Shown: positions 6,949-62,906 of the stretch, one piece after another
Layout: every line of letters starts with the position of its first letter
How positions within the stretch are numbered: the first letter of the stretch is position 1
From: a virus
Lineage: Duplodnaviria > Heunggongvirae > Uroviricota > Caudoviricetes
IMG/VR virus record: IMGVR_UViG_3300008114_000011
Strand: one strand, 5' to 3'
DNA length: 64,000 nucleotides
Translations under genes and position numbers: made by a program
Notes under the pieces: generated by a model
What the model was told of the DNA's origin: nothing
What the model saw: only the letters and a program-made list of their open reading frames with translations
Database searches by the model: none

Positions 6949-7235
6949 AAGATTTAAGAATAAACCAATCAACATTCCCACTTAAAAATGGTGGCACTGG
7001 TGTAATAGCAATATTCATGTATGCCGGTGATGAAGATCCAAAACCTATATTAGAAGATGCTATAAGAAAATATACCGAAGGAACTGATAACTACGATACC
7101 TTTATTGATGCTCAAATGAATTGTCCATGGGTAAGAGTAATCATAAGTGGTATAAGTGAAATGGAACAAATGAATTTTAATGACTTTATAGTTCAATGGA
7201 GAAGAGATCAAAAACTAAATGAACTTGGAATATGA
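6945..7235 (+). CDS. ELGI-tail family small protein
   Basis: 96 aa; C-term QWRRDQKLNELGI. Confidence 0.65.
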   Translation: MKDLRINQSTFPLKNGGTGVIAIFMYAGDEDPKPILEDAIRKYTEGTDNYDTFIDAQMNCPWVRVIISGISEMEQMNFNDFIVQWRRDQKLNELGI

Positions 7236-7591
7236 TAAAAGTTAGGGCTATATTAAAAAGAACCGGTGAAGAATTTAACATAGATATAATAAGAACTTCT
7301 AAGGCAATGCCTGGTTCCATTACAATAAACGTTAGAGATTTAGAAAATAAACTAAATATTGTAAGTGTAAGATATGAAGAAGAAGAAAGACCAAAAGTTT
7401 GGAATGCCGACGGAACCCCTAAATATATTAGAATAGAAACTTTCCATGAGTTTAATAAATATTGGGATGTTATTTGGGTTGATGTTGATAGTTATGATAG
7501 ATTAGGATCTAATAAAGAAAGATATGAGATGATATATGGGAGCTTTAAAAGAATCATAAGAGATCAAAAGTTAAATGAGCTTGGTGTATGA
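7232..7591 (+). CDS. ELGI-tail family small protein
   Basis: 119 aa; C-term IIRDQKLNELGV. Confidence 0.65.
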   Translation: MIKVRAILKRTGEEFNIDIIRTSKAMPGSITINVRDLENKLNIVSVRYEEEERPKVWNADGTPKYIRIETFHEFNKYWDVIWVDVDSYDRLGSNKERYEMIYGSFKRIIRDQKLNELGV

Positions 7592-8318: not shown

Positions 8319-8344
8319 CACATAATTTACTTTTAATATGGTTT

Positions 8345-8569
8345 ATGAAAGAAGGTGATATTGTTTTTTGTATTGATTCATCTGATCATGGTAAGAAACA
8401 GAAATTAACTTATGGTAAAGGATATACAATTAAAAGAATTGATAATTATAAATTAAATTCAAGTATATCCATTAAAAATGATAGTGGTGTAATTGGTATT
8501 TATAATTTTAATAGATTTATAACTCTCAAAGAATGGAGAGATAAGAAACTAAAAGAACTTGGGTTATGA
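8345..8569 (+). CDS. ELGI-tail family small protein
   Basis: 74 aa; C-term KEWRDKKLKELGL. Confidence 0.65.
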   Translation: MKEGDIVFCIDSSDHGKKQKLTYGKGYTIKRIDNYKLNSSISIKNDSGVIGIYNFNRFITLKEWRDKKLKELGL

Positions 8570-8835
8570 AAATGGTTTGTATAACAAATAAAATAAAAGG
8601 AAAAAACTTATCCAACCAATTAGTTGTTGGTAAAGAGTATGATTTCAAAGTGCAAGACTATGGTAGACTAACAAGTAATAGATATTGCTCTGTTTATTAC
8701 TATTGTACAAATGTTAGAGATAAATCAAATGCTTGGATAAGATTTACCGGTTCTGGTGGAGTTGATTGTATTTGGAGATGGTTTTCAACTAAACAGAATA
8801 TTAGAGATCAAAAACTAAAAGAGATTGGGATATGA
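8566..8835 (+). CDS. ELGI-tail family small protein (MKVICI subfamily)
   Basis: MKMVCITNK...NIRDQKLKEIGI. Confidence 0.65.
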   Translation: MKMVCITNKIKGKNLSNQLVVGKEYDFKVQDYGRLTSNRYCSVYYYCTNVRDKSNAWIRFTGSGGVDCIWRWFSTKQNIRDQKLKEIGI

Positions 8836-9032
8836 ATGTAGATGAAGATTTACTAAGATATTTTATTATACATTCACAAGGAATTAAACACGACGGTCCT
8901 TTATTTGATATCAGATTACTTGGTAATTCAATTATGTTTAGACTGAATCCTAATAGTGGTGCTTATGGTGTTGATTATAACTACTATAAGAGTTTATTAA
9001 GAGATAAGAAACTAAAAAATCTTGGGATATGA
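8832..9032 (+). CDS. ELGI-tail family small protein
   Basis: 66 aa; C-term LLRDKKLKNLGI; contains the 70-nt segment repeated at 15464. Confidence 0.65.
   Translation: MNVDEDLLRYFIIHSQGIKHDGPLFDIRLLGNSIMFRLNPNSGAYGVDYNYYKSLLRDKKLKNLGI
8888..8957 (+). repeat. 70-nt near-identical repeat (copy 1; partner 15464..15533)
   Basis: acacgacggtcctttatttgata...cctaatagt vs acacgagggtcctttatttgata...cctaatagt; about 3 mismatches by eye. Confidence 0.8.
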
Positions 9033-9247
9033 AAGAGATAAAGATTGGTACCAGATACCTTTGGATTGAAGATGGATATATCATAAGAGGAATTATAAAG
9101 GATATAAAAGAGAAAAACATAATCATACACTGGTATGGTAAGACAAACTATTCATACAAAATAGATTATTTTATGAATGAAACCAGAATACAGATGGATA
9201 AAGAGTATTATAGAGATCAGAAACTAAAAGATCTTCTGGGTATATAA
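9029..9247 (+). CDS. ELGI-tail family small protein
   Basis: 72 aa; C-term YYRDQKLKDLLGI. Confidence 0.6.
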   Translation: MKEIKIGTRYLWIEDGYIIRGIIKDIKEKNIIIHWYGKTNYSYKIDYFMNETRIQMDKEYYRDQKLKDLLGI

Positions 9248-9262
9248 AAATAAAAACGAATT

Positions 9263-16987: not shown

Positions 16988-17560
16988 TTATACACATACT
17001 TGAAGAAGTGAACCTTTATTTAATAATACTACTAATTTACCATCAATATTTAACCAATTATTCATGATGGTTTCTTTACTCCATTCCCACGCCTCCTTCT
17101 TGTATATATTCAATAAAAAACCATATCTCTCAAAAAACGACCAGATTGAAGTGCTTACGTAAATTCGTCTATCTCTACTTTTATCATAAAAAATTATATT
17201 GTCACCTGGATTATACCTATAAAGAACACATCCAGGGTGATCCTTACTCTCAACTTTTTCCATATCAGAAAAGTTTTTATTTAACCAATCAATACATACA
17301 TTCTCTATTGGTTTATCAGTAACTATAATTCCTTTACTTGTTTTATGAGAGTAATATCCTTCCTCTTCTATCCATGATTTTAAATGGTTTATTTTATCTT
17401 CACTAGGTTCTTCACTAAATTCAAATAAACGAAACATAGATGTATCTCCGTACTTCTCATCAAAGGTAACCTCATCAACCTCTATTGGATCTAAAGCAGA
17501 TGTTACAATCCATTTAGGATCTTCTCCATCGAAGTTTTCAAATAATTTTAAGTATTTCAT
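16988..17560 (-). CDS. MKYLK-head family protein
   Basis: 190 aa; N-term MKYLKLFENFDGE. Confidence 0.6.
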   Translation of the reverse strand: MKYLKLFENFDGEDPKWIVTSALDPIEVDEVTFDEKYGDTSMFRLFEFSEEPSEDKINHLKSWIEEEGYYSHKTSKGIIVTDKPIENVCIDWLNKNFSDMEKVESKDHPGCVLYRYNPGDNIIFYDKSRDRRIYVSTSIWSFFERYGFLLNIYKKEAWEWSKETIMNNWLNIDGKLVVLLNKGSLLQVCV

Positions 17561-17690
17561 ATTTCTATATATTATTTATTAAATGATTCAGATGGATAGA
17601 TTCATTAAATTTTCTTATCTTCATAAAGTATATATTAACTTTGTTTATTCTAAAAAAATTCATATCTTTATATAAACTAAAAATAGAATT

Positions 17691-17798
17691 ATGAAATTGT
17701 CTCCATTTACCTCATTAGTAATTAGTATGATATTCACCATCATTTGTACAATGGTCGTATTATCACATATACACCAAAACTTCCCTAATTGTAAATAA
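17691..17798 (+). CDS. possible 35-aa membrane peptide (below ORF-track cutoff)
   Basis: MKLSPFTSLVISMIFTIICTMVVLSHIHQNFPNCK; hydrophobic core; fills a gap. Confidence 0.35.
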   Translation: MKLSPFTSLVISMIFTIICTMVVLSHIHQNFPNCK

Positions 17799-17800
17799 TC

Positions 17801-17914
17801 ATGAAAGAAGGAGTACAACCATGGCATATCATTTTATCAGTAGTTCCACTGGTTATTACCGTCATAATTCTAATATTCATAGTACTCAAAAGAATATCAA
17901 AAGACTTAGATTAA
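17801..17914 (+). CDS. possible 37-aa membrane peptide (below ORF-track cutoff)
   Basis: MKEGVQPWHIILSVVPLVITVIILIFIVLKRISKDLD; ends 1 nt before next ATG. Confidence 0.35.
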   Translation: MKEGVQPWHIILSVVPLVITVIILIFIVLKRISKDLD

Positions 17915-17915
17915 A

Positions 17916-18098
17916 ATGAAAGGAATAAACAATATTAAATCAACCTCATCAGTAGATAAATTTACCGATGATGTATGTGTTTTTAGAGAACATAATGAAC
18001 TAAGACTTGAGTTCGATTGTCAAGAAACAATCATTCTCACATTAACAAAAGAACAATCAGAACAAATGATTCTTATGTTAGAGAAAATGTATAAATAA
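17916..18098 (+). CDS. hypothetical small protein
   Basis: 60 aa ORF in chain. Confidence 0.45.
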   Translation: MKGINNIKSTSSVDKFTDDVCVFREHNELRLEFDCQETIILTLTKEQSEQMILMLEKMYK

Positions 18099-26014: not shown

Positions 26015-26084
26015 AGGTGGGTAGCTCAACTGGAAAGAGCCTCTCATTAAGAGAGAGATTAAGGTTCGAATCCTGTCCCTTCTG
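26015..26084 (+). tRNA. tRNA-like element (type I size, loop ATTAAGA, possible UAA anticodon) with weak T stem
   Basis: D arm GCTC-AACTGGAAA-GAGC. Anticodon arm CTCTC-ATTAAGA-GAGAG. GGTTCGAATCC T-loop with only 3 T-stem pairs. Acceptor AGGTGGG/CCCTTCT has 1 mismatch. The helix extends 7 more bp (26008..26014 with 26084..26090). Confidence 0.45.
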
Positions 26085-46404: not shown

Positions 46405-47193
46405 ATGGGAAAACATTATTTATATAAACATATAAGAAATGATAGTAATATCATTTTCTATATTGGTATAGGGACAAAAAATAAATCTGATATAACTTAT
46501 AATAAGTATAGTAGGGCTTTTAATAAAAAAAGGAGAAATAAACATTGGTTAAATACAGTTTCTTTATTGAATGATGATTATTCAATTGAGATAGTATGTG
46601 AGACCGATGATTATGAATATGTGAAAAGTCTAGAAAAAAATCTGATTTTATTTTATGGTAGAAAGGATCTAGGTTTAGGTAATTTAGTAAATATGACAGA
46701 TGGTGGTGATGGTCAAATAAAAAGAGTTTGGAGTGAAGAGTCTAGGAAGAAGGCATCTAAATCACACATTGGTAAAGTAATTGATGGTGAGTGGAAGAAA
46801 AATTTAATAAAAGCTAGATTTGGAAATAAATCACATTCTGGTCGAACTTTTTCAGATGAACATAGAAAAAAAATATCAGAAGCAGGTAAGGGAAAAATAC
46901 CTTGGAATAAGAATAGAGAATTATCCAATGATGAGATTGAAAAAATAAAAAAGGGTATAGAAGAAAATAAAAAAATTTGTTATATTTGTAATGTTGAGTG
47001 TGACTCTGCTAATTATAATAGATGGCATGGTGATAAATGTGAGATGGGATCTATTTTAGATAGGGTTGATGAGATAAAGGATTTATTGTATAATAAAGTT
47101 CCTTTACTTAGGATTAGTAGAGTTTTAGGAATAAAGTATAAATTATTGAGAAGATTAAAAGAGTCAGTTTTATTTAAAGAAGAATTATTATGA
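46405..47193 (+). CDS. GIY-YIG homing endonuclease with NUMOD3-like repeats
   Basis: HYLYKHIRNDSNIIFYIGIGT (GIY...YIG); repeats SEESRKKASKSHIGK and SDEHRKKISEAGKGK. Confidence 0.75.
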   Translation: MGKHYLYKHIRNDSNIIFYIGIGTKNKSDITYNKYSRAFNKKRRNKHWLNTVSLLNDDYSIEIVCETDDYEYVKSLEKNLILFYGRKDLGLGNLVNMTDGGDGQIKRVWSEESRKKASKSHIGKVIDGEWKKNLIKARFGNKSHSGRTFSDEHRKKISEAGKGKIPWNKNRELSNDEIEKIKKGIEENKKICYICNVECDSANYNRWHGDKCEMGSILDRVDEIKDLLYNKVPLLRISRVLGIKYKLLRRLKESVLFKEELL

Positions 47194-47963
47194 AATATTT
47201 AAAAAAGAAATATCCGGATGGTAGCTTTTATGTTGAAGTAGAGGATTTTAGTGAACCTATAATAACCGAAAGAATAAATTCATATGAGGACCTTTTTTTC
47301 ATAAAATCCATCAAAGAGGTTTGTGATTTTAATGGAATTAAAGATGTTGAGTTATTTATACCATGTATGTTTCAACAGCAACATGACCGTAGATTTTTTG
47401 ATAATCAATCATTTGAACTAAAGATAGTTTGTGACTTTATCAACTCATGTAATTTTAGTAAAGTTTATGTTTTCCATCCACATTCTGATTCCACTCAAAT
47501 GGGATTGAATAATATTAGAGTTGTTGATAATTCTAAATTTATATCAAGTGTTTTAAGTAGAATTGATTCTAATCCAATATTATTTTCAACAGATGCTGGT
47601 TCATTTAAATGGATAAATAAATTAGTTGATAAAATAGGATTTAATGGTGATGTTTATTGTGCTAGTAAGTCTAGAGATTTAAAAACACATGATTTGAAGC
47701 AAGTTATTGATTGTTCTGATTTTGGTGGTAGAGATATATTAGTATTGGATGATTTATGTGTAAAGGGTGGTACATTTATAGGTCTATTGAATATGTTAAA
47801 GGAGAGAAATGTTGGTAAGATATACTTAGCAGTTAGTCATATGACTATTCAAGATCCAAATACAAGTCTTGAGTGTTATGATAAGATATTTACTACTAAT
47901 AGTAAGTATGACTATTATGTTCTAAATAATTTAGAATTGATTGATTATAAAAGTATTATATAA
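47190..47963 (+). CDS. prs: ribose-phosphate pyrophosphokinase (PRPP synthetase)-like protein
   Basis: LFIPCMFQQQHDRRF resembles the Prs xPYxxYxRQDR block; PRPP-binding loop DILVLDDLCVKGGTF. Confidence 0.6.
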   Translation: MKYLKKKYPDGSFYVEVEDFSEPIITERINSYEDLFFIKSIKEVCDFNGIKDVELFIPCMFQQQHDRRFFDNQSFELKIVCDFINSCNFSKVYVFHPHSDSTQMGLNNIRVVDNSKFISSVLSRIDSNPILFSTDAGSFKWINKLVDKIGFNGDVYCASKSRDLKTHDLKQVIDCSDFGGRDILVLDDLCVKGGTFIGLLNMLKERNVGKIYLAVSHMTIQDPNTSLECYDKIFTTNSKYDYYVLNNLELIDYKSII

Positions 47964-48826: not shown

Positions 48827-48871
48827 AGGTAATAGGTTCTTATATATATAAGTATAAAAGAAGTGATACTT

Positions 48872-49846
48872 ATGTTAGAAGAATTTATAAAAAAATCGAT
48901 AGTTAAATTTGGTAATAAATTTGATTATAGTAAGTTTAATTATGTGAATGCTAAAACTAAATCTATAATCATATGCCCAGTACATAAAGATTTTTTTCAA
49001 ACACCTGATAAGCATTTACGTTCAAAATATGGATGTAAATTATGTTGGGAAATTGAAAAAAAGAAAATAAAAAGAGATTATGTAAAGGGTCCAAATATCA
49101 TTTCAAAAGATGAGTTCTTGGGTAGATGTTATGAGAAGTTTGGTGATAAATTCAAATACGATTTATCAAACTACAATGGGTTTGTTGGTGATTATATAAA
49201 AATAACTTGTTCAGAACATGGTGATTTTTATACAAAACCGAATATACATTTATTAAGTAATAACACCTATGGGTGTAAATTATGTGCTAATGATAATAGA
49301 GTACTCAATAAAACACAAACCTATGATGATGTTATAGAAAAATTATCAAATATTTATAATGATAAATATATTTATCCTGAATATAATAGAGATACTTATA
49401 TTAACAAGAGGTCGAAAATAGATATAATTTGTCCGGATCATGGGCTATTTGTTAAGAGTGTTCAAAAACACCAAAGCGGTCAATATTGTTTTGAGTGTAA
49501 AATTAAGAATATGGTTTTTAATAATATTTTAGTTGGTGGTTACACTGAGAAATTATTTGAAGATAAACCAGAATTAAAGGATAAAAAATCTAAATTATAT
49601 TATTTGAGAATAAATAATGGTGATTATTATAAAATAGGAATAACAACAGTTTCGGTTGAAAGTAGAATAAAGTCATTGAAGAGTAAATCTAAAGGTTTTA
49701 TAAAAGATGTTGAGATTTTATTTGAAAAGGAAATGTCTTTATATGAATCATATATCATGGAGAGTAAAATATTAAATGATAATATAGATAGTAGAGTTTA
49801 TAAAAAATGGAGTACTGAAATTTTCAACAAAAATGTTTTGGAATAA
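48872..49846 (+). CDS. homing-endonuclease-like protein (repeated Cys modules plus T5orf172/GIY-YIG-like C-terminal domain)
   Basis: Three repeats of FG.KF.Y....Y......I.C..HG.F......HL....GC..C; C-term LYYLRINNGDYYKIGITTVSVESRIKSLKS. Confidence 0.55.
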   Translation: MLEEFIKKSIVKFGNKFDYSKFNYVNAKTKSIIICPVHKDFFQTPDKHLRSKYGCKLCWEIEKKKIKRDYVKGPNIISKDEFLGRCYEKFGDKFKYDLSNYNGFVGDYIKITCSEHGDFYTKPNIHLLSNNTYGCKLCANDNRVLNKTQTYDDVIEKLSNIYNDKYIYPEYNRDTYINKRSKIDIICPDHGLFVKSVQKHQSGQYCFECKIKNMVFNNILVGGYTEKLFEDKPELKDKKSKLYYLRINNGDYYKIGITTVSVESRIKSLKSKSKGFIKDVEILFEKEMSLYESYIMESKILNDNIDSRVYKKWSTEIFNKNVLE

Positions 49847-49881: not shown

Positions 49882-51462
49882 ATGAACTTTTTAGAAATTT
49901 ATTATACCGATGTGTATAAAACAGGACACAAACCAATGCTACCAGTGGGTAGTGTTTTGATGCAATCAAATTTTACACCAAGGAGTGGTAAATATAGCAA
50001 TTGTCCAAATAATGGTAAAATTGTTTCGTTTGGTCAACAAATGATGGTGAGAAAAATGAAACAAGATTGGGATGTTAACTTTTTTCAAAGACCAATTGAA
50101 GAAATCGATCAATTTGGGAAGGATTTAACAGATATGTTAATGCTGAGTGATCCTTTTGATGTTACTCACTTCAAAGAACTACATAAATTGGGATATCTTC
50201 CGATTGAGTTTAGAGCAATCACTGAAGGTGAGAGAATTCCGTATAAAATACCATTATCGACTATCGTTAATACTAAACCTTTAAATGGTCAAGTTTTTGA
50301 CTGGATAGTTAATTACTTAGAAACTATTAATTCTGCTGAATCTTGGCAAGCACCAACTTCAGCGACGCTATCATTCGCATTAAGAGAGTTATCAACAAAG
50401 TGGATCACAAAAACAGATCCGGAGAGTTTGTGGTTTGTTGACTATCAAAATCATGATTTCTCAATGAGAGGTATGGGTGGTAAATCAGCTATTGTTAATA
50501 GTGGTTTAGGATTTGCTACTTGTTCGAGAGGTTCAGATACACTACCTGTTATACCAGCTGCTAGAATGTATTATGATGAAAAAGATGTTTGTATCAACTC
50601 TGTTATCGCATCTGAACATGCTATTATGTGTTCATTGACTGGATTTTTCATTAAGACTAAAGATGGTTCTTGGGATAAGGTTGGTAACTTTGAAGTTGAG
50701 ACATTTAGGTATTTATTAAGAACTTTTCCAACTGGAATATTGTCATTAGTATCTGATACTTGGGATTTATGGAGAGTTATTACGGAGTACTGTCAAATAT
50801 TAAAAGATGAAATTTTAGCAAGAGATGGCAAACTTGTTATCCGTCCTGACTCTGGTGATCCAGTAGATATTATTTGTGGTAGCATAACTCCAGATATGTC
50901 TTCTTATAATGAAAGATACAAACAACCTCAATATAAAGGTGTTATCGAGTTATTATGGGATATCTTTGGTGGTACTGAAACATCAACCGGATATAAAAAA
51001 TTAGACTCACACATTGGTGCTATCTATGGTGACTCTATTAACTATAAGAGAGCTGAGAGTATTTATGAAAGATTATCAGCTAAAGGATTTGCAACAACAA
51101 ACATCGTTCTCGGTGTGGGATCCTATTCACTTCAGATGGTAACACGCGATACACATGGTATGGCTCAAAAAGCAACCTACATCGAAATTGAAGTTGATGG
51201 TGATGTTGAAGGTATCAACATCTTTAAAGACCCTATCACTGATGATGGTACTAAAAAATCAGCAACTGGATTACTAAAAGTAGTTAAAGTTGATGGTGAG
51301 TTTACATTAATTGATAAATGTACTTGGGATGATGTTAACTCGGAAGATAATGAGCTGAAAGTTATCTTCAAAGATGGTAAGTTCTATAACGAAACGACTT
51401 TGACCATCATACGTGGGAAGTTAGAGGATCTTGTTTCTAAAGAACAACCTGAATTAGTTTAA
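49882..51462 (+). CDS. nadV: nicotinamide phosphoribosyltransferase (NAMPT/NadV)
   Basis: 526 aa; N-term YYTDVYKTGHKPM; length and blocks SDTWDLW, IRPDSGDP, GAIYGDSI fit NAMPT. Confidence 0.8.
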   Translation: MNFLEIYYTDVYKTGHKPMLPVGSVLMQSNFTPRSGKYSNCPNNGKIVSFGQQMMVRKMKQDWDVNFFQRPIEEIDQFGKDLTDMLMLSDPFDVTHFKELHKLGYLPIEFRAITEGERIPYKIPLSTIVNTKPLNGQVFDWIVNYLETINSAESWQAPTSATLSFALRELSTKWITKTDPESLWFVDYQNHDFSMRGMGGKSAIVNSGLGFATCSRGSDTLPVIPAARMYYDEKDVCINSVIASEHAIMCSLTGFFIKTKDGSWDKVGNFEVETFRYLLRTFPTGILSLVSDTWDLWRVITEYCQILKDEILARDGKLVIRPDSGDPVDIICGSITPDMSSYNERYKQPQYKGVIELLWDIFGGTETSTGYKKLDSHIGAIYGDSINYKRAESIYERLSAKGFATTNIVLGVGSYSLQMVTRDTHGMAQKATYIEIEVDGDVEGINIFKDPITDDGTKKSATGLLKVVKVDGEFTLIDKCTWDDVNSEDNELKVIFKDGKFYNETTLTIIRGKLEDLVSKEQPELV

Positions 51463-51514
51463 TTTAAACAAGGCACCAAACTTGTAAACTAATTTCTTTA
51501 TTCACTCGTTAAAA

Positions 51515-51536
51515 AACCCACTCAATTGAGTGGGTT
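51515..51536. terminator. bidirectional terminator between convergent genes
   Basis: AAAAAA-CCCACTCAA/TTGAGTGGG-TTTTTT perfect palindrome. Confidence 0.8.
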
Positions 51537-51548
51537 TTTTGTTTATAG

Positions 51549-51932
51549 TTATTCAAATATAGATACTTTTATTTGTGGATTTCTAATAAGTTCTCCATAT
51601 TCCATACCATCATCATATGTTATTACACATTCGTAATTTGGATATTCATCTTTTACTTTTTTAATACCACTATTTATATCATTCATTATATCTTTTGTAA
51701 TTTGGAGATCTTTTATATAATCTTCAATTTTCATAAGAGGTGATCCATCCCAATTATTTCGATAATCTACTTTTGGCTCTGGTAACTTTTCAAACTCTAT
51801 TAAAACAAAATCTTCATCATCAATATATTTGATTTTATCAGACTCTATTAAATCAATAAAGCATAATTTTACATAGTCGTAGTCAAAACTATCATCTTCA
51901 ATATTCTCATTAAACTTTTTTAAGTGTTTCAT
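51549..51932 (-). CDS. MKYLK-head family protein
   Basis: 127 aa; N-term MKHLKKFNENIED. Confidence 0.6.
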   Translation of the reverse strand: MKHLKKFNENIEDDSFDYDYVKLCFIDLIESDKIKYIDDEDFVLIEFEKLPEPKVDYRNNWDGSPLMKIEDYIKDLQITKDIMNDINSGIKKVKDEYPNYECVITYDDGMEYGELIRNPQIKVSIFE

Positions 51933-51947
51933 ATTTATCTTTATATT

Positions 51948-53663
51948 TTATGTACAATCTGGACAATCAATTCTACCATCACCATCACATCGATTACACC
52001 AAATTCTACCTTCACCATCACAATCACCACACTCTCTGGTACCATCACCACCACATCTATCACATTCGTTAGTACAGTCACCCTCACATTCAGAACAATC
52101 TTGTTTACCTGATCCACTACAATAAGAACACTCATTTCCCTCATCATCTTCTCCAGTTCCATCACAACTAGAACAGTCTTCTTTTCCAGTTCCTTCGCAG
52201 TTATCACAAGGTAGAGTACCGTGTCCATCACAATTAGAACATTCTACTTCACCAGAGGCACCACATTCTTCACAATCATATCTTCCATCACCCTCACATT
52301 CATAGCAATCAATTCTTTCATCACCACCACATCTTTCACATTCTTCTCCATTACCACCATCAGTTTCTCTTAGTTCGTAATAGTTACTATTTATTACTAA
52401 TTTTTGCTCATTTGTTAAGAATCCATAATCCCATTCATAATAACAAAGAGTATCTAAATAAGGGTATTTACTAAAGCCGTTCATTTCTAAATCAACTTTA
52501 ATTGTTCCGATGTTTGAATCAGAACCATTAAACATAAACTCTTCCTCTGAAATATTTTGATTTTTCTTATAAACATATCCCATTTTAATTGCGTATTTAA
52601 TAAACAATTCTTGGTCTGGTGAATTACTCACATAAATTCTATCCATAAATGGTTTTCCTTCTGATTCGGTATGTTTTACTAAATTATATTTCGTTATTAC
52701 TCCTTCATCATCACCACCATCCCATGGCATATATTCTGGTTTTTTCCAAAGAAGAGCTCTACCTATAATTTTAGTTGGATCTTCTTTAGATTTTAATATA
52801 ACTAATCCAACACTTTTAGGATTTTTAGAATATATGTTTAAGTAGTCTTGACATCTAGCATGTCTCATACAAGATGCTCCTAAAGTATGATTACCACCTC
52901 GATAATAATTACCTTCATAATAAAACTTTTTAATATCATCACCTTCAACCAATTCAAAATCAGAGAATATATTTTCTTTTTTAGCTTTAGTGGCAATTGA
53001 AAACTTAGTTACAAAATCTTCAACTTCAGTTCCTTTAACTTCTTTACCAGCTTTCTTCAATAGTGATTGAACGAATGATCCAACTCTAACTTCTTGTGAG
53101 GAAACCGCTCCCTCACCAATTTTAAGACCATAATCTTCAATGATAAGATCAATATTCTCACCACTTCTATTAAATCTTATATGATAAATTTTACGTCCTT
53201 GATCAAGATACCATTTTAATCTATTTTTTACATCCTCATCATTAAAATCATCAATACTTGTTATCTGTTTAGTAATAGTAGCTTTTTGGTTTCTTTGAAG
53301 TAATTCATACCAATTCAAAAAACCTTTTTCGACTCTTGGATCTTCAAATAATTTAGCAAATGATGTAAATATTTCTTTTGATAAGATAGACAATGATGCG
53401 CCAAAATCAATTATAACACAAGAGTTTTTAGACTTTTTATCGGATTTAAATTGTATAAAGTTGTCTTTATCATCAGAAATATCAATAAAGTTTGTATCAA
53501 CATCAACGTCAACACCCTCTAAATCTAAAATCTCTTTTGAAAGTGGACTATTAACCGACTTCAAAATTTCTTTGAAATCATCTTTATAAACCATATTACC
53601 TTCAAGTAGTAAATTGAGTTTACTCTCGTTTAGGAAACTATCATATCTTAAAATATTACTCAT
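51948..53663 (-). CDS. large protein with about 12 tandem CxxCxGxG (DnaJ-type zinc-finger-like) repeats at the C-terminus
   Basis: C-term CERCGGD..CYECEGDG..CEECGASG..CSNCDGHG..CDNCEGTG..CSSCDGTG..CSYCSGSG..CDRCGGDG..CGDCDGEG..CNRCDGDG..CPDC. N-terminal domain paralogous to 61155..62276. Confidence 0.75.
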   Translation of the reverse strand: MSNILRYDSFLNESKLNLLLEGNMVYKDDFKEILKSVNSPLSKEILDLEGVDVDVDTNFIDISDDKDNFIQFKSDKKSKNSCVIIDFGASLSILSKEIFTSFAKLFEDPRVEKGFLNWYELLQRNQKATITKQITSIDDFNDEDVKNRLKWYLDQGRKIYHIRFNRSGENIDLIIEDYGLKIGEGAVSSQEVRVGSFVQSLLKKAGKEVKGTEVEDFVTKFSIATKAKKENIFSDFELVEGDDIKKFYYEGNYYRGGNHTLGASCMRHARCQDYLNIYSKNPKSVGLVILKSKEDPTKIIGRALLWKKPEYMPWDGGDDEGVITKYNLVKHTESEGKPFMDRIYVSNSPDQELFIKYAIKMGYVYKKNQNISEEEFMFNGSDSNIGTIKVDLEMNGFSKYPYLDTLCYYEWDYGFLTNEQKLVINSNYYELRETDGGNGEECERCGGDERIDCYECEGDGRYDCEECGASGEVECSNCDGHGTLPCDNCEGTGKEDCSSCDGTGEDDEGNECSYCSGSGKQDCSECEGDCTNECDRCGGDGTRECGDCDGEGRIWCNRCDGDGRIDCPDCT

Positions 53664-53753: not shown

Positions 53754-54587
53754 ATGGAAAAGGGATATATTTATAAAATAATTTCACCAACTAACAGGAT
53801 TTATATTGGTAAAACTTTTAATTTGGAAAAGAGAGTAAGATCTTATAAAGGTTTATGGTGTAAAAAACAAAGAGTTTTGTATAAATCATTAGTTAAATAT
53901 GGTTGGGATAAACATAGTTTTGAGATACTATTTGAAGATTTTTGTAGTGAGGAATATTTATCTGAGTTGGAGACAAAGTATATAATTGAATATAATAGTT
54001 TTCGAAGATACAACTATAAATTTGGAATGAATTTAACTCTTGGTGGTGAAGGATCTTGTGGATTAAAACATACGGATAAAACTAAAAAAATGATATCCGA
54101 AACTAAGAAAAAGGCTAAAAGAACGGAGAAAGAGATTTTAGCAAGTGAAAAAAGAAGAGGGACTAAGGTTTATAAAAGTGAAGAGTGGATTAAAAATAAC
54201 GCAGAGAGTATAAAAAAACCAATATTGCAATATGATTTGGATGGTAATTTTATCAAAGAATGGAAAAGTGCTAAAGATATTGAATTGGAATTGGGATTTT
54301 CTAGGAAAAACATTTCCTGTAATGTTAGATATAAAAGTAATAGTGCATTTAACTTTATATGGATTTTTAAAAATGCCGATCTTAAAATAGATGATATTCT
54401 AATAAGGAGAAAAAGAGAAAGAAAAAAACCAACTAATAGTATTAAGGTTTTAGATATTGAATGTAATATTGTCTATGATAGTATAATGGATGTAGTTAAA
54501 AATACTAACATGACATATGCTAAAGTTTATCGAGTTATATACAGTAATGATGAGAATAAAAAGTATATTATATATGAAGAGAAATAA
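53754..54587 (+). CDS. GIY-YIG homing endonuclease
   Basis: GYIYKIISPTNRIYIGKTFNLEKRVRSY; NUMOD-like HTDKTKKMISETKKKA. Confidence 0.8.
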   Translation: MEKGYIYKIISPTNRIYIGKTFNLEKRVRSYKGLWCKKQRVLYKSLVKYGWDKHSFEILFEDFCSEEYLSELETKYIIEYNSFRRYNYKFGMNLTLGGEGSCGLKHTDKTKKMISETKKKAKRTEKEILASEKRRGTKVYKSEEWIKNNAESIKKPILQYDLDGNFIKEWKSAKDIELELGFSRKNISCNVRYKSNSAFNFIWIFKNADLKIDDILIRRKRERKKPTNSIKVLDIECNIVYDSIMDVVKNTNMTYAKVYRVIYSNDENKKYIIYEEK

Positions 54588-56024: not shown

Positions 56025-57749
56025 ATGAAAAGAATATTATTTTTACTAACACTATTATTATCATTTAGTTCATTAGCAACTAATTATTATATTAGTTCAA
56101 CCGGAAACAATACAAACAATGGAACATCATCTATTACACCAAAATTAACATTAGCAAACGTTTTCAGCACCTATAATTTAGGTTCTAATGATACTATTTT
56201 CGTTGAAGCAGGAACTTATTCTGAGACAGGTATTACTGTTGGTACTGATGATGAAGGTTTTGTAATTTCTGGTGCGGCTTTATCATCTGGTGTACCTACA
56301 TCTATTTTTGATGCAGGTAGTACCGCAAGATGGTTATTGTTAAATAACACAAATAATGATAATATCACAATCACTAAATTAATTATAAAGGATCATAAAA
56401 ATTCTGATGGAGGTGATCCAGGAGGTGGTGGAGCAATTAAAATAATTGCTGGATGTACAGGATTTAAAGCAACTTATTGTCAGTTTGATAATTGTGATAC
56501 AAGAACTGCCTCTTTACATCACCGAGGTGGTGTTATTTATTCTGCTGAGGGAATAACCATCGATTATTGTACTTTCAAAAATTGTAATGCTGAATATTAT
56601 GGTGGTGCTATTTCAATAGAATTATCACCAACATCATCATCATCAATAAAACATTCAATTTTTTATTCAAATACCGCTACTAATTACGGAGGTGCTATAT
56701 TCTTTGGTGTTGGATCTACCTCTACTCTAACATTAGAAAACTGTTTATTTTATGAAAATAATACATCATCAGGAGAGGCTGTTATTGTTGCTATGAATAC
56801 ATATAGTACATTAAATATTATGAACTGTACTATAACTGCTAATGGTAATGCTTCTGTTGGAACTGGAGGTGTTTTGGCTTTATCATCAGCTAAAATAAAT
56901 TTAATAAATACAATTATTTATAATAATTTAGGTAATACTTTCAATGATGTTTATAATAATGCCGCTACCGTTAACATGACAAATTGTTGTTATGGAAATT
57001 CAGCTGAGATAAAATCAGCTACATCAAATACATCACCGTTAATATCAAATCCACTATTCACAAATAGTGCTAGTGATGATTATACACTTTCTGGTACATC
57101 ACCTTGTATAGATTGGGGAACAACAACCGGAGCACCAACTGATGATTTGAGACATTATAGTCGTATTGGTAATCCAGATGTTGGATGTTATGAATCAAAT
57201 GGTATTGCTTTACCAATTGAGTTGATTTACTTTAAAGTTAAATTTGAAGATGGTGTTGTTAAATTAAGATGGTCAACAGCATCAGAACACAATAATGATT
57301 ATTTCACAATTGAAAAGTCAAAAGATGGTTTAGATTATGATATAGTTACAACTCTACCAGGTGCTGGTAATTCAACTCAAAGAATAAACTATCAAGCAAT
57401 TGATCGAAATATTGAAACTGGAATAACTTACTATCGATTAAAACAAACTGATTATAATGGTGATTATAAAAGAACAGATTGGGAGTCTATATTAATTCAA
57501 TTAAATATTGAGAACTTAACGGTTTATCCAAATCCAATTACAAATGAAATAAATGTTTCTTTACATTCATCTTTTAGTAAGGTTGAAGACTTATTGATAT
57601 ATGATTTAACCGGTAAACAATTTTATAAAAAATCATTAGATTTACAATTAGGTGATAATTATTTTGATGTAGAGTTACCACAACTTTCTAAAGGTCTTTA
57701 CATACTACAAATAGGTGATAAGAAACTTAAACTTGAATATAATGATTAA
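56025..57749 (+). CDS. secreted beta-helix-like protein with T9SS C-terminal sorting domain
   Basis: Signal peptide MKRILFLLTLLLSFSSLA. Repetitive G/N/T-rich segments (GGAI.I, YGGAIS, YGGAIFF). C-term LTVYPNPITNEINVSL...DLTGKQFYKKSL...LSKGLYILQIGDKKLKLEY is typical of the Por/T9SS CTD. Confidence 0.75.
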   Translation: MKRILFLLTLLLSFSSLATNYYISSTGNNTNNGTSSITPKLTLANVFSTYNLGSNDTIFVEAGTYSETGITVGTDDEGFVISGAALSSGVPTSIFDAGSTARWLLLNNTNNDNITITKLIIKDHKNSDGGDPGGGGAIKIIAGCTGFKATYCQFDNCDTRTASLHHRGGVIYSAEGITIDYCTFKNCNAEYYGGAISIELSPTSSSSIKHSIFYSNTATNYGGAIFFGVGSTSTLTLENCLFYENNTSSGEAVIVAMNTYSTLNIMNCTITANGNASVGTGGVLALSSAKINLINTIIYNNLGNTFNDVYNNAATVNMTNCCYGNSAEIKSATSNTSPLISNPLFTNSASDDYTLSGTSPCIDWGTTTGAPTDDLRHYSRIGNPDVGCYESNGIALPIELIYFKVKFEDGVVKLRWSTASEHNNDYFTIEKSKDGLDYDIVTTLPGAGNSTQRINYQAIDRNIETGITYYRLKQTDYNGDYKRTDWESILIQLNIENLTVYPNPITNEINVSLHSSFSKVEDLLIYDLTGKQFYKKSLDLQLGDNYFDVELPQLSKGLYILQIGDKKLKLEYND

Positions 57750-58476
57750 ACAAAAATTAGACGAATACTTAGAGTTTGATTCATCTTTGTTATTTGGTGA
57801 TGATACTTTCATCACTAATGAATTAAAAGATCGTGGAATAATTTATAATAAGTTAGTTAGAGTTTTTGGTGGAGCTTTAAGAGATATTATAGCCGGTCAA
57901 AAAATCAATGATGTGGATATATTAATTGGTACTAAATCAATGAATTTTGTTGATAAAGTATTAGTTGAGAATGGATATATTTATCATGAAAATTTAGCAC
58001 CTAAAGATCTATCATCTGTTTATGATATGAATATGGTTATATCTGAACCCTATTCTTATGTTAAAGGAACTAAAGTGGTTCAACTTATAAGACCAAGAGT
58101 TATGTCTGTTGAAAGACCATCCGATGTTACTCAAGATTTATACACGCAAACGTTTATTGATTTGATTGCTAATGTTGATATTAGTTGTTGTGGTATATCT
58201 TATGATGGTAAAAACTTATATCAAAACTATCCAGGTGCTATTTCACATGCTAAACATAGAAAGTTTCTTGTAAATAACTTAGCTAAAATGTATAATCAAA
58301 AAAGAATTAGTTCTAGAAGATGGAAGCTGATAAATAGAGGTTGGGAAGAGTTGAATGGAGTTGCTGATTATAGAGATTTTAAAATAGATGCTATTTTTGA
58401 TATCGAAAATTTTGAATATATAGATGAATCAAAAACCATAAATAAAAAGAAGAATAAAGAGTTCGATTTGTGGTAA
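57742..58476 (+). CDS. nucleotidyltransferase of the CCA-adding/poly(A) polymerase family (head domain)
   Basis: VRVFGGALRDIIAGQKINDVDILIG matches the GGxVRDxLLG..x.DxD motif; ATG 57742 overlaps upstream stop. Confidence 0.65.
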   Translation: MIKQKLDEYLEFDSSLLFGDDTFITNELKDRGIIYNKLVRVFGGALRDIIAGQKINDVDILIGTKSMNFVDKVLVENGYIYHENLAPKDLSSVYDMNMVISEPYSYVKGTKVVQLIRPRVMSVERPSDVTQDLYTQTFIDLIANVDISCCGISYDGKNLYQNYPGAISHAKHRKFLVNNLAKMYNQKRISSRRWKLINRGWEELNGVADYRDFKIDAIFDIENFEYIDESKTINKKKNKEFDLW

Positions 58477-58499: not shown

Positions 58500-59033
58500 A
58501 TGAGAAAACCCTTTAAGAGAGTAGAACCAAAAAGAAAACACAAAATTAATTTAGAAATAACATCAAGTGATGTTAGATTGATTGGTAATGGAGAACCAAT
58601 CGTTATTTCTAGAAATGAAGCTATTAGAATGGCTGAAGCAGAGGAAAAAGATTTGATTATGATTAATGAAAATCAAACTCCACCTATTGTTAGAATTGAG
58701 GACTACAACAAATTTCTTTATAATCAAGAAAAGATTGAGAAAGAGAAAAAGAAAAATGCTGTTAAATCCTCTTTAAAAGAAATACAATTATCGGTTAATA
58801 TATCAGATCATGATTTAGAAACTAAATCTAAAAAAGGTAGAGAGTTTTTAAGTGACGGTGATAAAGTAAAAGTTGTTATCTCTTTAAAAGGTAGAGAGAA
58901 AGCATCTCCAGAAAGAGGTGAGTTAGTTATGTTAAAATTTGCTCAATCCGTTGAAGAGTTTGGTACACCAGAGGCACTTCCTAAATTAGAATCCGGAAAG
59001 TGGTTAATGATTTTGAAATGTAAAAAGAAATAA
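58500..59033 (+). CDS. infC: translation initiation factor IF-3
   Basis: INLEITSSDVRLIGNGEPIVISRNEAIRMAEAEEKDLIMINENQTPPIVRIEDYNKFLY...KEIQLSVNISDHDLETKSKKGREFLSDGDKVKVVISLKGRE follows the two-domain IF-3 pattern. Confidence 0.85.
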   Translation: MRKPFKRVEPKRKHKINLEITSSDVRLIGNGEPIVISRNEAIRMAEAEEKDLIMINENQTPPIVRIEDYNKFLYNQEKIEKEKKKNAVKSSLKEIQLSVNISDHDLETKSKKGREFLSDGDKVKVVISLKGREKASPERGELVMLKFAQSVEEFGTPEALPKLESGKWLMILKCKKK

Positions 59034-59136: not shown

Positions 59137-61158
59137 TTAAACCCATTTATCATTTTTTCTTTTAAGAAGTTTATCTCCTTCTAATTTATAAAACTTATAT
59201 TTTTTATCAATAGAAGTTATAACATAATATTTATCTGGTCCTAATTCCTTATATCTTTTCATATTACCAGTTACCTTAACACCATCCACTTCACCACCCA
59301 TTTGTTTGGCATAAGCCCATTTAATATAGTGTGGATCAACGTGTCTCGATCTTAATTTATCTTGTTCAATTGATGTTTCTAATGTAGATAATAAGTGAAT
59401 AAAAACTATTTCATATCCATTCTCTCTTGCTAAATCAAATATATCCTTAATGTGTTCATAACCAGTATCAGTATATTCTTTACCAGCACCGGTTGTATCA
59501 TAGATAAAGTTTTGACCAGTTTTCATAAAACCTTTCATCTTCATTAAGTTTAATTCAGACGCATTTTTTGTTCTACCACCTTCTTCTTTTTCTTTTCCTT
59601 TATAATAAACATTTGGATCTTTTGTGTAAAGAAGTGAAATATCATCAGTTGAGAAGTCTTTAATGTTTGTATTTTTTGTATGTAAATAATTATTCACAAA
59701 GTGTGAATTATGTAGTATTGTTGGTAAGTTACCACCTATGAAGTTATGATGTTTATCTAAGACTATATCATAAACATAATCATTATGTTCTATTGTTGAT
59801 ATATTAGTTATTTTATCAAAAAATAAGTTATTGTGATGATTAATATATGTTTCTGGTATATAAACATTATTCTCATTTAAAAAATTACATATTTTATTAA
59901 AACGTTTTTTCGTTATTACTCTTCTATATTTATAACTTCTAGTAAATCTATATCCAGTTTCATCTTCTGGTATAAATTCGGTAATAAAAAATAAAAAAAC
60001 AAATTTAAATAATAAGGATTTTTTATCATATATAGTCAGGGTAACAAGTGATGATTTTAATTTATTTGGAGAAATATTAAATAAATATATTAGATGTAGT
60101 AGAAAAAAAATTAAACCAATTGAAAAAACTAATACAAATATTGGTGGATTTATACCAAATGATGACATGGTGGAATTAATTTATAATAATAAATTAAACA
60201 TTAAAAGTGCATAAGATAAATCAGTAGCCATTTCATATGACGATGTGTAATATTCAACTCTATTTTCAAATACAGAACCATCACAAGATAAATAACTACC
60301 TAAGAAATGTTTTAATGATTCACTGTTTGATATTATATCATCCGGAATTCTAACTTTATGTGATTTGTTGCCAAAAATATAATCACCACATATTTCAGAA
60401 ATATTTGAAATAAAATCATATTTATCTTTTTTAAATCTTCGATTTCCTAATTTAATATCATCTGAATATTGAACACTATGTCTTATTTTTTTAGATTTTA
60501 CTGTTAATATTTTATTTTCTTTTTCGACACATTTTCTAAAATCATCTATTATATCAATATCTATATTTGTTAGTGTTAGAAATTTACTATTTTTATTTTT
60601 TATAAAATTACCATCACTTAACGAATAACCAATAATCCTTGATAATTCATTACTTATTTTTGATTTATTATTAAAAGTGTTATTTATTATTCTAGGTCTG
60701 GCTAACTTATCATCTATTGTTATTTCTGATGATTTTTTCCAAATAATATCACCGTTTTTTTCTAAAACTAATAATGGGTGTATAGGTGTAACTTTTATAT
60801 CAACACCCGTTTGTGTTTTTATATTTATTAACTTTTCTGAATAGCCTCTATATAAACTCGAAATCTCATTTTCCACAAACTCACCACTATCATTTAATGA
60901 TTTAACATATAAGTTTTTAACAGGAATATTTATTTCACCAATTTTTGATTCGGTGTTATAGTTATCTATCAATTTACCAATTTTAGTCATTTTATTATTC
61001 ACTAAAATGGGTGTATTATATTCTAAGCACTTTCCAATACCGGGAGCACCGATTAGGAAAACAGCTAATCCTTTTTCTTTATCTAATATTTCTGGAATTG
61101 GTTCATTCTTTGACCATTCTTCTTTTATGTAATTGAAAAATTCTTTTATATATCTCAT
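59137..61158 (-). pseudogene. intein-containing P-loop kinase, reading frame broken by one in-frame TAA (60181..60183)
   Basis: ORFs 60181..61158 and 59137..60168 are in the same frame. N-extein ends GAPGIGK. C-extein starts SHFVNNYL...IYDTTGAGKE (zeta/AAA_33-like kinase pattern). Confidence 0.6.
59707..61029 (-). mobile_element. class 1 intein with LAGLIDADG homing-endonuclease domain
   Basis: Block A CLEYNTPILV directly after the P-loop Lys. Block B VTPIHPLLV. LAGLIDADG motifs IIGYSLSDGNF and FLGSYLSCDGSV. Blocks F/G YVYDIVLDKHHNFIGGNLPTILHN|S. Confidence 0.8.
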
Positions 61159-62276
61159 ACTAATCTATTTATTTTAGTTTCAATTCCTTTTCTTTTCAAA
61201 AAGATGTGACCATCTCCACAAACATCACAGATTCCATTGTAACTTGAGAAACATTCACCATCACATTCATAACATTGATCATCACCACCATCCGTTTCAT
61301 GTAACCAATTACAATTCTTAGATGGTAAGTTTGATAACTTTTTACCTTTTAAGAAACAAAGTGTATCAATGAATGGATATTTATTGAAGTTTGATTTTTC
61401 TAATTTGACAGATATTTCGCCAAAAAATTCCTTATTATCATATAAAAAACAAACATTTGTTTCCGTATGACTATTCATTTTCTGTTTATATAAAAATTTA
61501 TTCTCATTAGCAAAATTTTTAAACTTTATAACATCAGAATCATTATTTACATAAACTCTATCCATAAAATATTTAGCATCACAAGGTGACTTTTTTAGTT
61601 TCCAAACTAAAGCTCGACCACAAATTTGATCAGTTTCTTTATTGTGTAGAATTAAAAGACCAACTTTATTATCATTCTCCACATATAGTTTTAATTTACC
61701 CCTAGCATCACCCATACAAGATCCTCCTAAAGTCCCATTAGTGTTTAAGTAATTAGATGTGTTATAATATTTGATAATATCATCACCTTTAACAATTTTA
61801 AACTGCCATTTATCATTTATTTCTAATGATTTATATGCGTTCACAAAGTCTTCAACATCTTTATCGGTTAAATTAAAATTAATAGATTTTGAACTTTGTA
61901 TCATAGACACAATAGATCTCAAAACTCTACCAATTTTCATTTCAGATCTCCCTAATGTGTATGGCAAATCTGGATCTTCATCATTATCCCAATCTTTAGG
62001 AACTTTATCATTCATAGTGAAACTAACCATATCAACTCGATTGGTAGTATCAAAAAAGTTTTGAGTTATTGAATCATCTTTTAATTGATGAAATGGATCT
62101 GCTTTTCTATTTAAGAATTCATCAATGATTTTAGAAATATCACCCACTCTACCAGATTGTCTAGATAATTCGGAAATCTTTCTATGAAATTCGGATGTCG
62201 AATATAAATACCCCTCTAATAAGATGACTAAATCATTATTTAATTTTTCTAAAATAAATTGGTTATACTTTCTCAT
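61155..62276 (-). CDS. paralog of 51948..53663 with a single short Cys cluster
   Basis: Shared blocks GDDIIKYY, LGGSCMGDA, VGLLILH, ICGRALVWKL, FMDRVYVNN, YPFIDTLCF, ETDGGDDQCYECDGEC. Confidence 0.7.
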   Translation of the reverse strand: MRKYNQFILEKLNNDLVILLEGYLYSTSEFHRKISELSRQSGRVGDISKIIDEFLNRKADPFHQLKDDSITQNFFDTTNRVDMVSFTMNDKVPKDWDNDEDPDLPYTLGRSEMKIGRVLRSIVSMIQSSKSINFNLTDKDVEDFVNAYKSLEINDKWQFKIVKGDDIIKYYNTSNYLNTNGTLGGSCMGDARGKLKLYVENDNKVGLLILHNKETDQICGRALVWKLKKSPCDAKYFMDRVYVNNDSDVIKFKNFANENKFLYKQKMNSHTETNVCFLYDNKEFFGEISVKLEKSNFNKYPFIDTLCFLKGKKLSNLPSKNCNWLHETDGGDDQCYECDGECFSSYNGICDVCGDGHIFLKRKGIETKINRLV

Positions 62277-62294
62277 TTCTTATATATTTAATCT

Positions 62295-62906
62295 TTATCT
62301 TTTAATTCTTTTAATAGCACCTTTTATAACAGATTTATGATCAAATGCCATATCAACAATAGTTTCACCACTATAACTAACATCAATCCAATCACATTCA
62401 TCAGCATCATCAGCCGCGGATGTTTCAGGTATATCACTTAAAATAACTGAGAAAGCATAAGAAATACAATTCTTATTTCTTGGATCTCTCCACGGTTCAT
62501 TGAATACATCAATAAATCTCAAATATCTTTTAGGTACTTTTAAACTTGTTTCTTCTTCCAACTCACGAATAGCAGCATCTATTGGTTCTTCACCTTCGTC
62601 AATGTTCCCACCAGGACAAGCCCACTTGCCTTTAAATGGATCTTTATTTCTTAGAATTGCCAACATCTTATAATTTGAGCCAGTATCAACTAAAATAACT
62701 AAATCGACACAAGACATACCCGTATCAACTATCATATCACCATTCAATCTAAAAACATATGTATAACCTTTCTTTATTTGATTTATAGAATTATTTACAA
62801 AATTTCCAGAAGTTGTATAAACTTTACGATCTTTTATATCTAGAACCTTAACAGGTCCAAACCAATCACTCGAATTAAATTGGTTATAAGTTTTAATTTT
62901 TAACAT
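62295..62906 (-). CDS. Nudix hydrolase with MKYLK-like head
   Basis: Nudix box GGNIDEGEEPIDAAIRELEEETSL; N-term MLKIKTYNQFNSS. Confidence 0.8.
   Translation of the reverse strand: MLKIKTYNQFNSSDWFGPVKVLDIKDRKVYTTSGNFVNNSINQIKKGYTYVFRLNGDMIVDTGMSCVDLVILVDTGSNYKMLAILRNKDPFKGKWACPGGNIDEGEEPIDAAIRELEEETSLKVPKRYLRFIDVFNEPWRDPRNKNCISYAFSVILSDIPETSAADDADECDWIDVSYSGETIVDMAFDHKSVIKGAIKRIKR

Follow-up and report, generated by a model that had tools for sequence, protein, structure and literature searches.

The cysteine-rich domain (CRD) of DnaJ folds as a hairpin in which motifs 1 and 4 (outer) and motifs 2 and 3 (inner) each form a Zn(Cys)4 site (1EXK). The CRD of BSD2 (6EKB, PF25436) is a short two-site form and that of Anti-TRAP (PF15777) has one site; BSD2 acts as an assembly factor made of a CRD only, Anti-TRAP is a CRD-like protein binder, and we know of no extended ladder, acidic rod or fused head described for either. 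Here we analyse a gene at 51948..53663 on the (-) strand of a 64,000-nucleotide (nt) stretch of Caudoviricetes DNA (IMG/VR record IMGVR_UViG_3300008114_000011), hereafter the window, whose protein of 571 amino acids (aa) ends in twelve CxxC units of the DnaJ type. What is known here is the CRD; what is new is an acidic array of quantised length, predicted to form a zinc ladder, with 12 units in this protein and up to 22 in its relatives, joined to an unannotated head domain. Extended CxxCxGxG arrays and this head family are described in none of the papers and libraries searched.

We propose that the conserved head and the acidic rod, with its six putative zinc sites, act together as a docking effector, an explanation to which, taken as a whole, we give even chances, and whose functional part (the effector role, docking or decoy by the rod, and the action of the head) we hold with low confidence. 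The gene itself is real, an intact open reading frame (ORF) running from an ATG through 571 codons to a stop, and an identical 571-aa product is called on 17 metagenome contigs. The representative of its 90% cluster, P0001, differs from the window protein at two rod positions, G539V and C545F, the latter taking away a predicted zinc-ligand Cys of unit 10, and the pair may be either natural variants or assembly errors. The product is a cytoplasmic phage protein, with no signal peptide and no transmembrane-like segment (maximum KD19 1.33), and consists of an N-terminal region, a core modelled with a GNAT-like fold and the predicted zinc-hairpin rod. Its AlphaFold2 (AF2) model has a mean pLDDT (predicted local distance difference test score) of 85.7.

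The twelve-unit rod and its predicted hairpin

The rod occupies aa 442-571 (51951..52340, (-)), with CxxC units starting at aa 442, 453, 464, 475, 486, 497, 512, 523, 534, 545, 556 and 567. The last 130 aa thus hold twelve units, where the preliminary description had read about 12 in the last ~135 aa; chance would give about 0.1 CxxC in a 571-aa protein with ~1.5% Cys. The period is exactly 11 aa with one exception, a 15-aa step from unit 6 to unit 7, and the last CxxC lies one residue before the C-terminus. The linkers, which had been given as 3-6 residues, are 3 residues long throughout except for 7 at the centre, and this sole long linker (EDDEGNE, aa 505-511; 52131..52151, (-)) is the predicted hairpin tip. 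The array had also been taken as an uninterrupted run of C-x2-C-x-G-x-G units; eight of the twelve fit that pattern strictly. Three others depart from it, namely units 1 (CERCGGDE), 3 (CEECGASG) and 8 (CSECEGDC), which are degenerate, and the C-terminus shortens unit 12 (CPDCT). Across the family the units follow the consensus C-x-x-C-[D/G]-G-x-G-x-[V/I]-[E/D]. This rod carries 38 D/E against 10 K/R in 130 aa, with an isoelectric point (pI) of 4.05 and a net side-chain charge of about -28, the N-terminal part of the protein having a pI of 5.1; the rods of the family average 27% D/E against 6% K/R and a net charge of -25. Close relatives share similar hairpin tips, such as DGSGEDEEGNE.

Judged by its sequence, the rod is a DnaJ-type CRD. 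A profile of the family finds 1EXK (E 7.6e-7) and BSD2 (E 1.5e-5) in the PDB, and BSD2_CRD (PF25436) is matched in 73 of 83 relatives (best E 9.5e-8), although the window protein alone, with 13.4 bits where 27 are required, stays below the Pfam threshold. The DnaJ CRD (PF00684) has the same CxxCxGxG zinc-knuckle repeat and the same nesting that we propose below. The rod differs from it in having 12 units and six predicted sites in place of four units and two sites, in its strict 11-aa period, in its strong acidity and in forming the very C-terminal end of a protein whose head is unrelated. The excess of twelve motifs over the usual four, already singled out as unusual before our analysis, would make it an extended variant of the CRD rather than the canonical domain, and no J domain, G/F region or DnaJ_C was found by Pfam in the window protein or in the 83 relatives.

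The symmetry of the rods across the family is best explained by a nested hairpin, in which units 1+12, 2+11 and so on to 6+7 would pair to form six Zn(Cys)4 sites. Rod units were counted in 259 relatives, 217 of which have a chain of at least four. The count is even in 196 of these 217, and those 'odd' rods that were examined contain C-x3-C or C-x4-C variants missed by the search pattern. Of the 196 even-count rods, 165 have one longest spacer, placed exactly at the centre, and most of the others have a distinct short central turn. In 190 of the 217 relatives no more than 3 aa separate the last CxxC from the end of the protein, which would place both ends of the rod at the head with the turn pointing away from it. 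Furthermore, where a non-central linker reaches at least 13 aa, its mirror-image linker is also long 28 times out of 47. When linkers were shuffled inside their rods, such cases numbered 6.7 +/- 3.1 and at most 18, and none of 2000 shuffles reached 28. As such mirror-symmetric insertions are seen in rods of 8, 10, 12 and 14 units, they do not go back to one inherited event. In the AF2 model each half of the rod (pLDDT ~85) contains five short strands, arranged symmetrically and falling on positions 9-11 of units 1-5 and 7-11. Pairing of the linker that follows unit i with the one that follows unit 12-i would be expected to give this pattern. A hairpin of this kind would be rigid and, by our estimate, roughly 5-7 nm long.

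The number of repeats among relatives, a comparison that the preliminary description had recommended, ranges from 2 to 22 in steps of two, symmetrically about the centre, the counts seen across the family being 0, 2, 4, 6, 8, 10, 12, 14, 16 and 22. The window itself contains one 12-unit copy and one 2-unit copy, and the longest rods seen (11+11 units, with long central linkers) belong to two relatives at L058:8354-10342(+) and L067:9635-11623(+). We infer that rod length evolves one rung at a time, and the rod studied here was apparently made by stretching the two-zinc DnaJ hairpin threefold, to six sites.

The rod keeps its scaffold and its acidity while its surface drifts or diversifies. Compared with the closest homolog, P0002 (82% identical overall), identity is 84% in the N-terminal region, 91% in the core and 62% in the rod, falling to 43% once the C and G positions of the rod are set aside. 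The ratio of non-synonymous to synonymous substitution (dN/dS), as one pairwise Nei-Gojobori estimate between the window protein and the 82%-identical homolog, is 0.09 for the core, 0.34 for the N-terminal region, 0.45 for the rod and 0.73 for rod positions other than C and G. The rod also occurs outside the family: three small proteins (P0280, P0281, P0282), the only matches of a rod-only protein search limited by its word index, have an acidic, centre-symmetric rod of ~7-8 CxxC units joined to unrelated domains, placed N-terminally or in mid-protein, from which we take the rod to be a mobile module. Conversely, family members that lack the rod often bear other acidic repeat tails. One such tail is a ~16-aa 'DAVYSE...Y' repeat in several copies, for example D-[DE]-A-V-[YW]-S-[ED]-x5-Y-[IL], found in members at L054:4774-6756(-), L060:4835-6889(-), L069:14614-16740(+) and L099:4939-7077(-); gp037 of the Cellulophaga phage phi38:1 (L008:23070-24398(-)) has an acidic 170-aa tail and no zinc rod.

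In the DNA, Tandem Repeats Finder (TRF) detects only 2.2 copies of a 33-nt unit with a 75% match, at 52259..52332. Repeats so diverged indicate that the array is old and not a recent slippage expansion, and they do not bear out the idea that periodic DNA accounts for the ORFs in alternative frames. Two such ORFs had been called antisense; 51924..52112 does lie on the opposite (+) strand, and 51941..52231 lies on the same (-) strand in another frame.

The conserved head and its family

The head consists of the N-terminal region (aa 1-185; 53109..53663, (-)), a family-specific alpha/beta part with an SH3-like barrel, and the conserved core (aa 186-438; 52350..53108, (-)). The former carries the motif Y7..F..E....LLLE21-x-N together with conserved N58 and F72. 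The five blocks singled out in the preliminary description are all present, namely LGASCMRH (261-268), VGLVILK (285-291), IIGRALLW (299-306), FMDRIYVSN (339-347) and YPYLDTLCYY (400-409). Invariant in 83 aligned sequences are Y248, Y253, S264, C265, M266, Y278, N281, R302, W306, R342, Y344, P401 and D404. No His is invariant among these 83. The triplet S264-C265-M266 (52866..52874, (-)) is invariant in a second alignment of 37 sequences as well. In the model, DSSP assigns helix to 265-267, continuing at 269-279, with C265 at the N-terminal end of the helix, and C265 is a candidate nucleophile or ligand contact. A functional pocket in the head, in which something would be bound or transformed, is suggested by the many invariant polar residues together with the core dN/dS (0.09).

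As to its nature, the core has a predicted fold resembling GNAT, and the fold matches of the head include aminoacyl-tRNA transferases, the comparison extending to MprF, ATE1 and L/F-transferase. The acetyl-CoA motif A (Q/R-x-x-G-x-G/A) is missing at the beta4-alpha3 junction, where strand 339-345 (FMDRIYV) is followed by S-N-S-P-D-Q-E-L-F and the family consensus is x-N-x-x-x-D-x-x-L-F, with no Gly. No acetyltransferase family appears among the 25 most frequent of the 30 Pfam families matched at E<=10 by 37 core sequences, nor among the 25 of 56 Pfam families listed at E<=1 for 83 full-length relatives. Indeed the architecture had not been recognised in the preliminary description, and this is upheld: the head has no Pfam, NCBIfam or PHROGs match, whether for the query, the 83 full-length relatives or the 37 core sequences, and no relative of solved structure was found by sequence in the PDB. 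A well-characterised family with the same C-terminal repeat, which would have spoken against the novelty of the protein, was not found either. A Foldseek search of the head against BFVD gives 13 significant matches, all to uncharacterised or unnamed phage proteins, including one whose only label is 'Putative hydrolase'; nine of the 13, with lengths of 271-1113 aa, belong to 'uncultured marine phage' records. Faint matches include a PcfJ-like protein, an N-myristoyltransferase and a GNAT.

PcfJ had been named as a lead, and locally the layouts are similar. In PcfJ-like proteins (PF14284) a Cys motif, LxHCVG as against LGxSCM here, is likewise followed by a helix and two hydrophobic strands, and both families occur in phages and mobile elements, PcfJ in Firmicutes phages and this family in Bacteroidota phages and megaphages. 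The lead was not supported: the Foldseek match of the head to a PcfJ-like phage protein is faint (E 6.9e-3, probability 0.57), there is no Pfam hit, and hhalign of the core profile gives a probability of 0.1% against pCF10 PcfJ and 0.3% against a 9-sequence PcfJ alignment (pCF10 PcfJ with eight phage PcfJ C-termini). A word-index search for PcfJ relatives returned only close Enterococcus copies. In passing we note that the pCF10 PcfJ gene (L009:15874-17217(-)) overlaps an AcrIIA9-family Cas9 inhibitor gene (17208-17984(-)) and lies beside DpnD/PcfM, which hints at an anti-defence region.

Within the window the family has one further member, 61155..62276 on the (-) strand, a 373-aa paralog with the N-terminal motif and core of 51948..53663. 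The paralogy that had been claimed is supported by BLASTP (33% identity, E 6e-32, aa 186-484 against 107-360), and a hidden Markov model built from 120 homologs finds only these two genes in the window, the paralog at E 2.1e-63. Its single Cys cluster, also as described, consists of two CxxC units that start at aa 335 and 350, a step of 15 aa (CYECDGEC...CDVC, aa 335-353; 61218..61274, (-)), and that are predicted to form one zinc site and fit the family series of 2, 4, 6 ... 22 units. The two proteins had further been said to share an MKYLK-like head. The starts of 51948..53663 and 61155..62276 read MSNILRYDSFLNES and MRKYNQFILEKL; rather than a literal MKYLK, they have in common the family motif Y..F..E....LLLE[AG]N.

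Among 5.8 billion proteins searched there were 334 homologs. Of the 120 listed, more than 100 span the full length of the query, and those with a source name among the matches listed are all labelled 'hypothetical protein'. A profile of the core (trimmed alignment A2, query aa 186-438) run against 1.84 billion representatives of clusters at 50% identity finds 5588 clusters at E<=1e-3, of which 2272 reach E<=1e-30. By tblastn the core is present in only 12 of 50,697 phage records: five uncultured megaphages of 634-735 kb, with 7-15 places each, and seven Cellulophaga Callevirus genomes with one place each. An IMG/VR scan with a 9-sequence alignment found 205 relatives; the same scan with the single protein returned none, and the 37-sequence alignment was too divergent for this pattern scan. 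Two to five family genes lie within 20 kb in 30 of the 85 IMG/VR loci analysed. Among 185,579 species genomes a scan bounded by its pattern found one relative, on a 3.8-kb contig of a Flavobacteriaceae metagenome-assembled genome. This relative, the Cellulophaga relatives and a type IX secretion system domain encoded elsewhere in the window suggest that the DNA is from a phage of Flavobacteriia/Bacteroidota and that only phages have the family.

Proposed function and its alternatives

Under the model that we favour, the 571-aa protein would be a non-virion, intracellular effector. Its polyanionic rod would serve as a docking arm, or as a nucleic-acid-like decoy, for basic, nucleic-acid-binding proteins of the host or the phage, and the head would bind or modify the captured partner or a small ligand. 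A non-virion role would fit the position of the gene among NAD-salvage, IF3, nucleotidyltransferase and homing-endonuclease genes. The decoy action would have a functional analogy, and only that, in the DNA mimics Ocr and ArdA, which, like the rod as predicted, are elongated, rigid and highly acidic proteins of phages and mobile elements. The side-chain charge of the rod together with a formal -2 for each Zn(Cys)4 site, spread over a few nanometres, would come to about the order of duplex DNA; the comparison is one of composition, as neither sequence nor fold relates the rod to Ocr or ArdA.

Several observations weigh against this model. The pairing of the cysteines derives from sequence symmetry and not from geometry. 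One group of the family has a one-sided 17-aa linker, and in a 22-unit member the first arm is acidic and the second basic and lysine-rich, so that neither acidity nor perfect symmetry is universal. The nearly neutral rod surface could equally mean a mere spacer or solubility tag. Moreover, the number of paralogs in each megaphage is unusual for a metabolic enzyme, and among 85 family loci there is no conserved neighbour gene pointing to a pathway.

The drift of the rod surface is also where a different explanation begins, one that we consider possible if unlikely. The head would do the work as an enzyme, for instance in nucleotide- or tRNA-linked group transfer, and the rod would be an appendage, be it a stabiliser or solubiliser, a thiol-disulfide redox module or a zinc reservoir, these being taken together in our estimate. 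Thiol-disulfide redox activity has been reported for DnaJ-type CRDs. Strong constraint on the core beside a nearly neutral rod surface is what this explanation would lead one to expect, and the GNAT-like predicted fold with its aminoacyl-tRNA transferase matches agrees with it, as do the nucleotide-metabolism genes near several loci. Were the rod a passive tag, one would not expect it to hold an exact 11-aa register, to take up insertions in mirror pairs or to change in steps of one rung across so diverged a family, and the same module is found on unrelated domains. One relative, P0230, has a phosphoribosyltransferase (PRTase) domain (Pribosyltran) fused to it, which would suit an enzymatic head; this is a single, sub-threshold case whose domain is unlike both the PRTase of the window and that of phi38:1, and the link was set aside.

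The docking effector could also be put in a more specific form, in which the rod is a new kind of module, a zinc-stapled polyanionic hairpin of quantised length that gains one rung with each pair of 11-residue units (1-11 rungs) and works as a rigid nucleic-acid mimic or molecular ruler. Giant phages would use sets of such rods, joined to the GNAT-like head, to decoy or modify DNA- or RNA-binding proteins of the host, both defence and housekeeping ones, and an arms race would diversify the length and surface of the rods. In so definite a shape we think it unlikely to be correct.

The homology of the tail to the CRDs of DnaJ and BSD2, together with the established roles of BSD2 as an assembly factor and Anti-TRAP as a protein binder, raises the prospect of a chaperone or holdase, in which an extended CRD would bind non-native clients, for example during assembly of a large virion, and the head would provide specificity. 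Cellulophaga phages with a family member have GroEL/GroES genes as well. We find this doubtful, as the J domain and the other parts of DnaJ are lacking by Pfam, an acidic rod with unconserved exposed positions would make an odd client-binding surface, and the same head is kept by members with no rod or with an acidic repeat tail in its place.

Equally doubtful is a place in the virion, where the rod would form a thin fibre, whisker or decoration, or else the phage would carry the protein inside its head and eject it into the cell, with the paralogs as structural variants. The shape of the rod and the many paralogs in each megaphage would be in keeping with this, some structural families of jumbo phages being multicopy, and one family member has a faint match to the capsid decoration protein family PhiKZ_gp244 (E 0.0025). 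Against it, the gene stands among metabolic and translation genes rather than structural ones, and neither an oligomerisation motif nor any match in fold to fibre or decoration proteins already known was seen. The phi38:1 homolog gp037 is likewise encoded on the replication and metabolism arm, where it stands with the genes for DNA polymerase, primase, RtcB, a PRTase and GroEL/ES. The phi38:1 record uses the label 'structural', and gp037 does not bear it.

Finally, that the array is no functional rod but a recent slippage expansion or a low-complexity assembly artefact, as a repetitive region overlapped by alternative-frame ORFs might suggest, can be dismissed with near certainty on the strength of the diverged repeats found by TRF, the 17 independent contigs with an identical protein, and the symmetry of the family rods, hundreds of homologs keeping the Cys/Gly scaffold while other positions diverge.

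If the nested six-zinc hairpin is borne out, it would be a natural, modular route from a simple repeat to a stiff rod of set length, of interest for the structural biology of zinc fingers and for protein design, and it would extend the CRD of DnaJ and BSD2 past its two-site form. Should the rods prove to be decoys for nucleic-acid-binding proteins of the host, they would represent a previously unrecognised class of factors for counter-defence or takeover by phages. Naming the head family, with its thousands of clusters and its many copies in each megaphage, and establishing its activity would annotate a visible share of the 'dark' genes of marine and freshwater giant phages, and gp037 of phi38:1 offers a culturable entry point.

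Genomic neighbourhood

The window is AT-rich (25-34% GC), with small genes densely packed. Recoding of TAG or TGA hardly alters ORF coverage and so gives no evidence for stop-codon recoding as the cause of its ORF-poor regions. Sixteen nt past the stop of 51948..53663 begins a 127-aa gene (51549..51932, (-)) that is called on every contig with the 51948..53663 gene and is probably co-transcribed with it; it has no family match and is not conserved beside other family members. A terminator-like hairpin of 14 pairs at 51510..51541, a pattern match from a consensus scan, lies between this gene and the NAMPT-family gene and is likely the end of the transcription unit. A scan for sigma-70-like promoters gave nothing above shuffles, and the Bacteroidetes -7 motif TAnnTTTG is not enriched in the window and is absent upstream of 51948..53663.

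The NAMPT-family gene (526 aa; 49882..51462, (+)) is convergent with 51948..53663, and a GIY-YIG homing endonuclease gene (GIY-YIG+NUMOD1; 53754..54587, (+)) is divergent from it. Upstream of NAMPT lie a PRTase/Prs-like gene (257 aa; 47190..47963, (+)) and two homing-endonuclease-like genes (NUMOD3, DUF723; 46405..47193 and 48863..49846, (+)), so that NUMOD3, DUF723 and GIY-YIG+NUMOD1 genes are interspersed with metabolic genes in less than 10 kb. A NUDIX gene (62295..62906, (-)) directly precedes the paralog 61155..62276. The PRTase/Prs-like, NAMPT and NUDIX genes look like a phage set for NAD+ salvage or reconstitution, which we take to resemble the Adps+Namat 'NARP1' or the NAMPT-based 'NARP2' pathway.

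The NAMPT+PRTase pair recurs beside family members on six other contigs, and P0018, a 45%-identical ortholog on a 629-kb contig, has a NAMPT/PRTase neighbourhood too. A functional link to NAD salvage was nevertheless rejected, as no more than 6 of the 85 family loci have NAMPT or PRTase less than 10 kb away and the arrangement looks like synteny of one sub-lineage; at the other loci inspected gene by gene, mostly unannotated small genes surround the family member. On one JGI contig (3300010160, L020; genes at 5590-5997, 6001-7416 and 8342-9907) the NAMPT is 87.5% identical to that of the window. The family member found there just after a NUDIX gene, P0109, has 8 units and is only 34-35% identical to either window copy, which suggests turnover or replacement of paralogs, or very fast divergence, at a stable site.

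Further along the window, on the (+) strand, 56025..57749 encodes a 574-aa protein with a signal-like N-terminus and a Por_Secre_tail domain (E 1.5e-9), that is, a Bacteroidota host-type (type IX) secretion tag on a phage gene. It is followed by a 253-aa nucleotidyltransferase (57715..58476, (+)) with a weak PolyA_pol head / Gad2-like match, which adjoins a full-length translation initiation factor IF3 (58500..59033, (+); IF3_N E 5e-19, IF3_C E 9e-26). The end of the paralog overlaps the start of a P-loop (GAPGIGK-C...) gene with a LAGLIDADG intein, which is present as two ORFs 12 nt apart (59137..60168 and 60181..61158, (-)). The two-ORF state is also called on other contigs; the intein may be interrupted or degenerate, or the gene may truly be split. 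The only tRNA gene in the window is a tRNA-Leu (anticodon TAA) at 26015..26084 (+).

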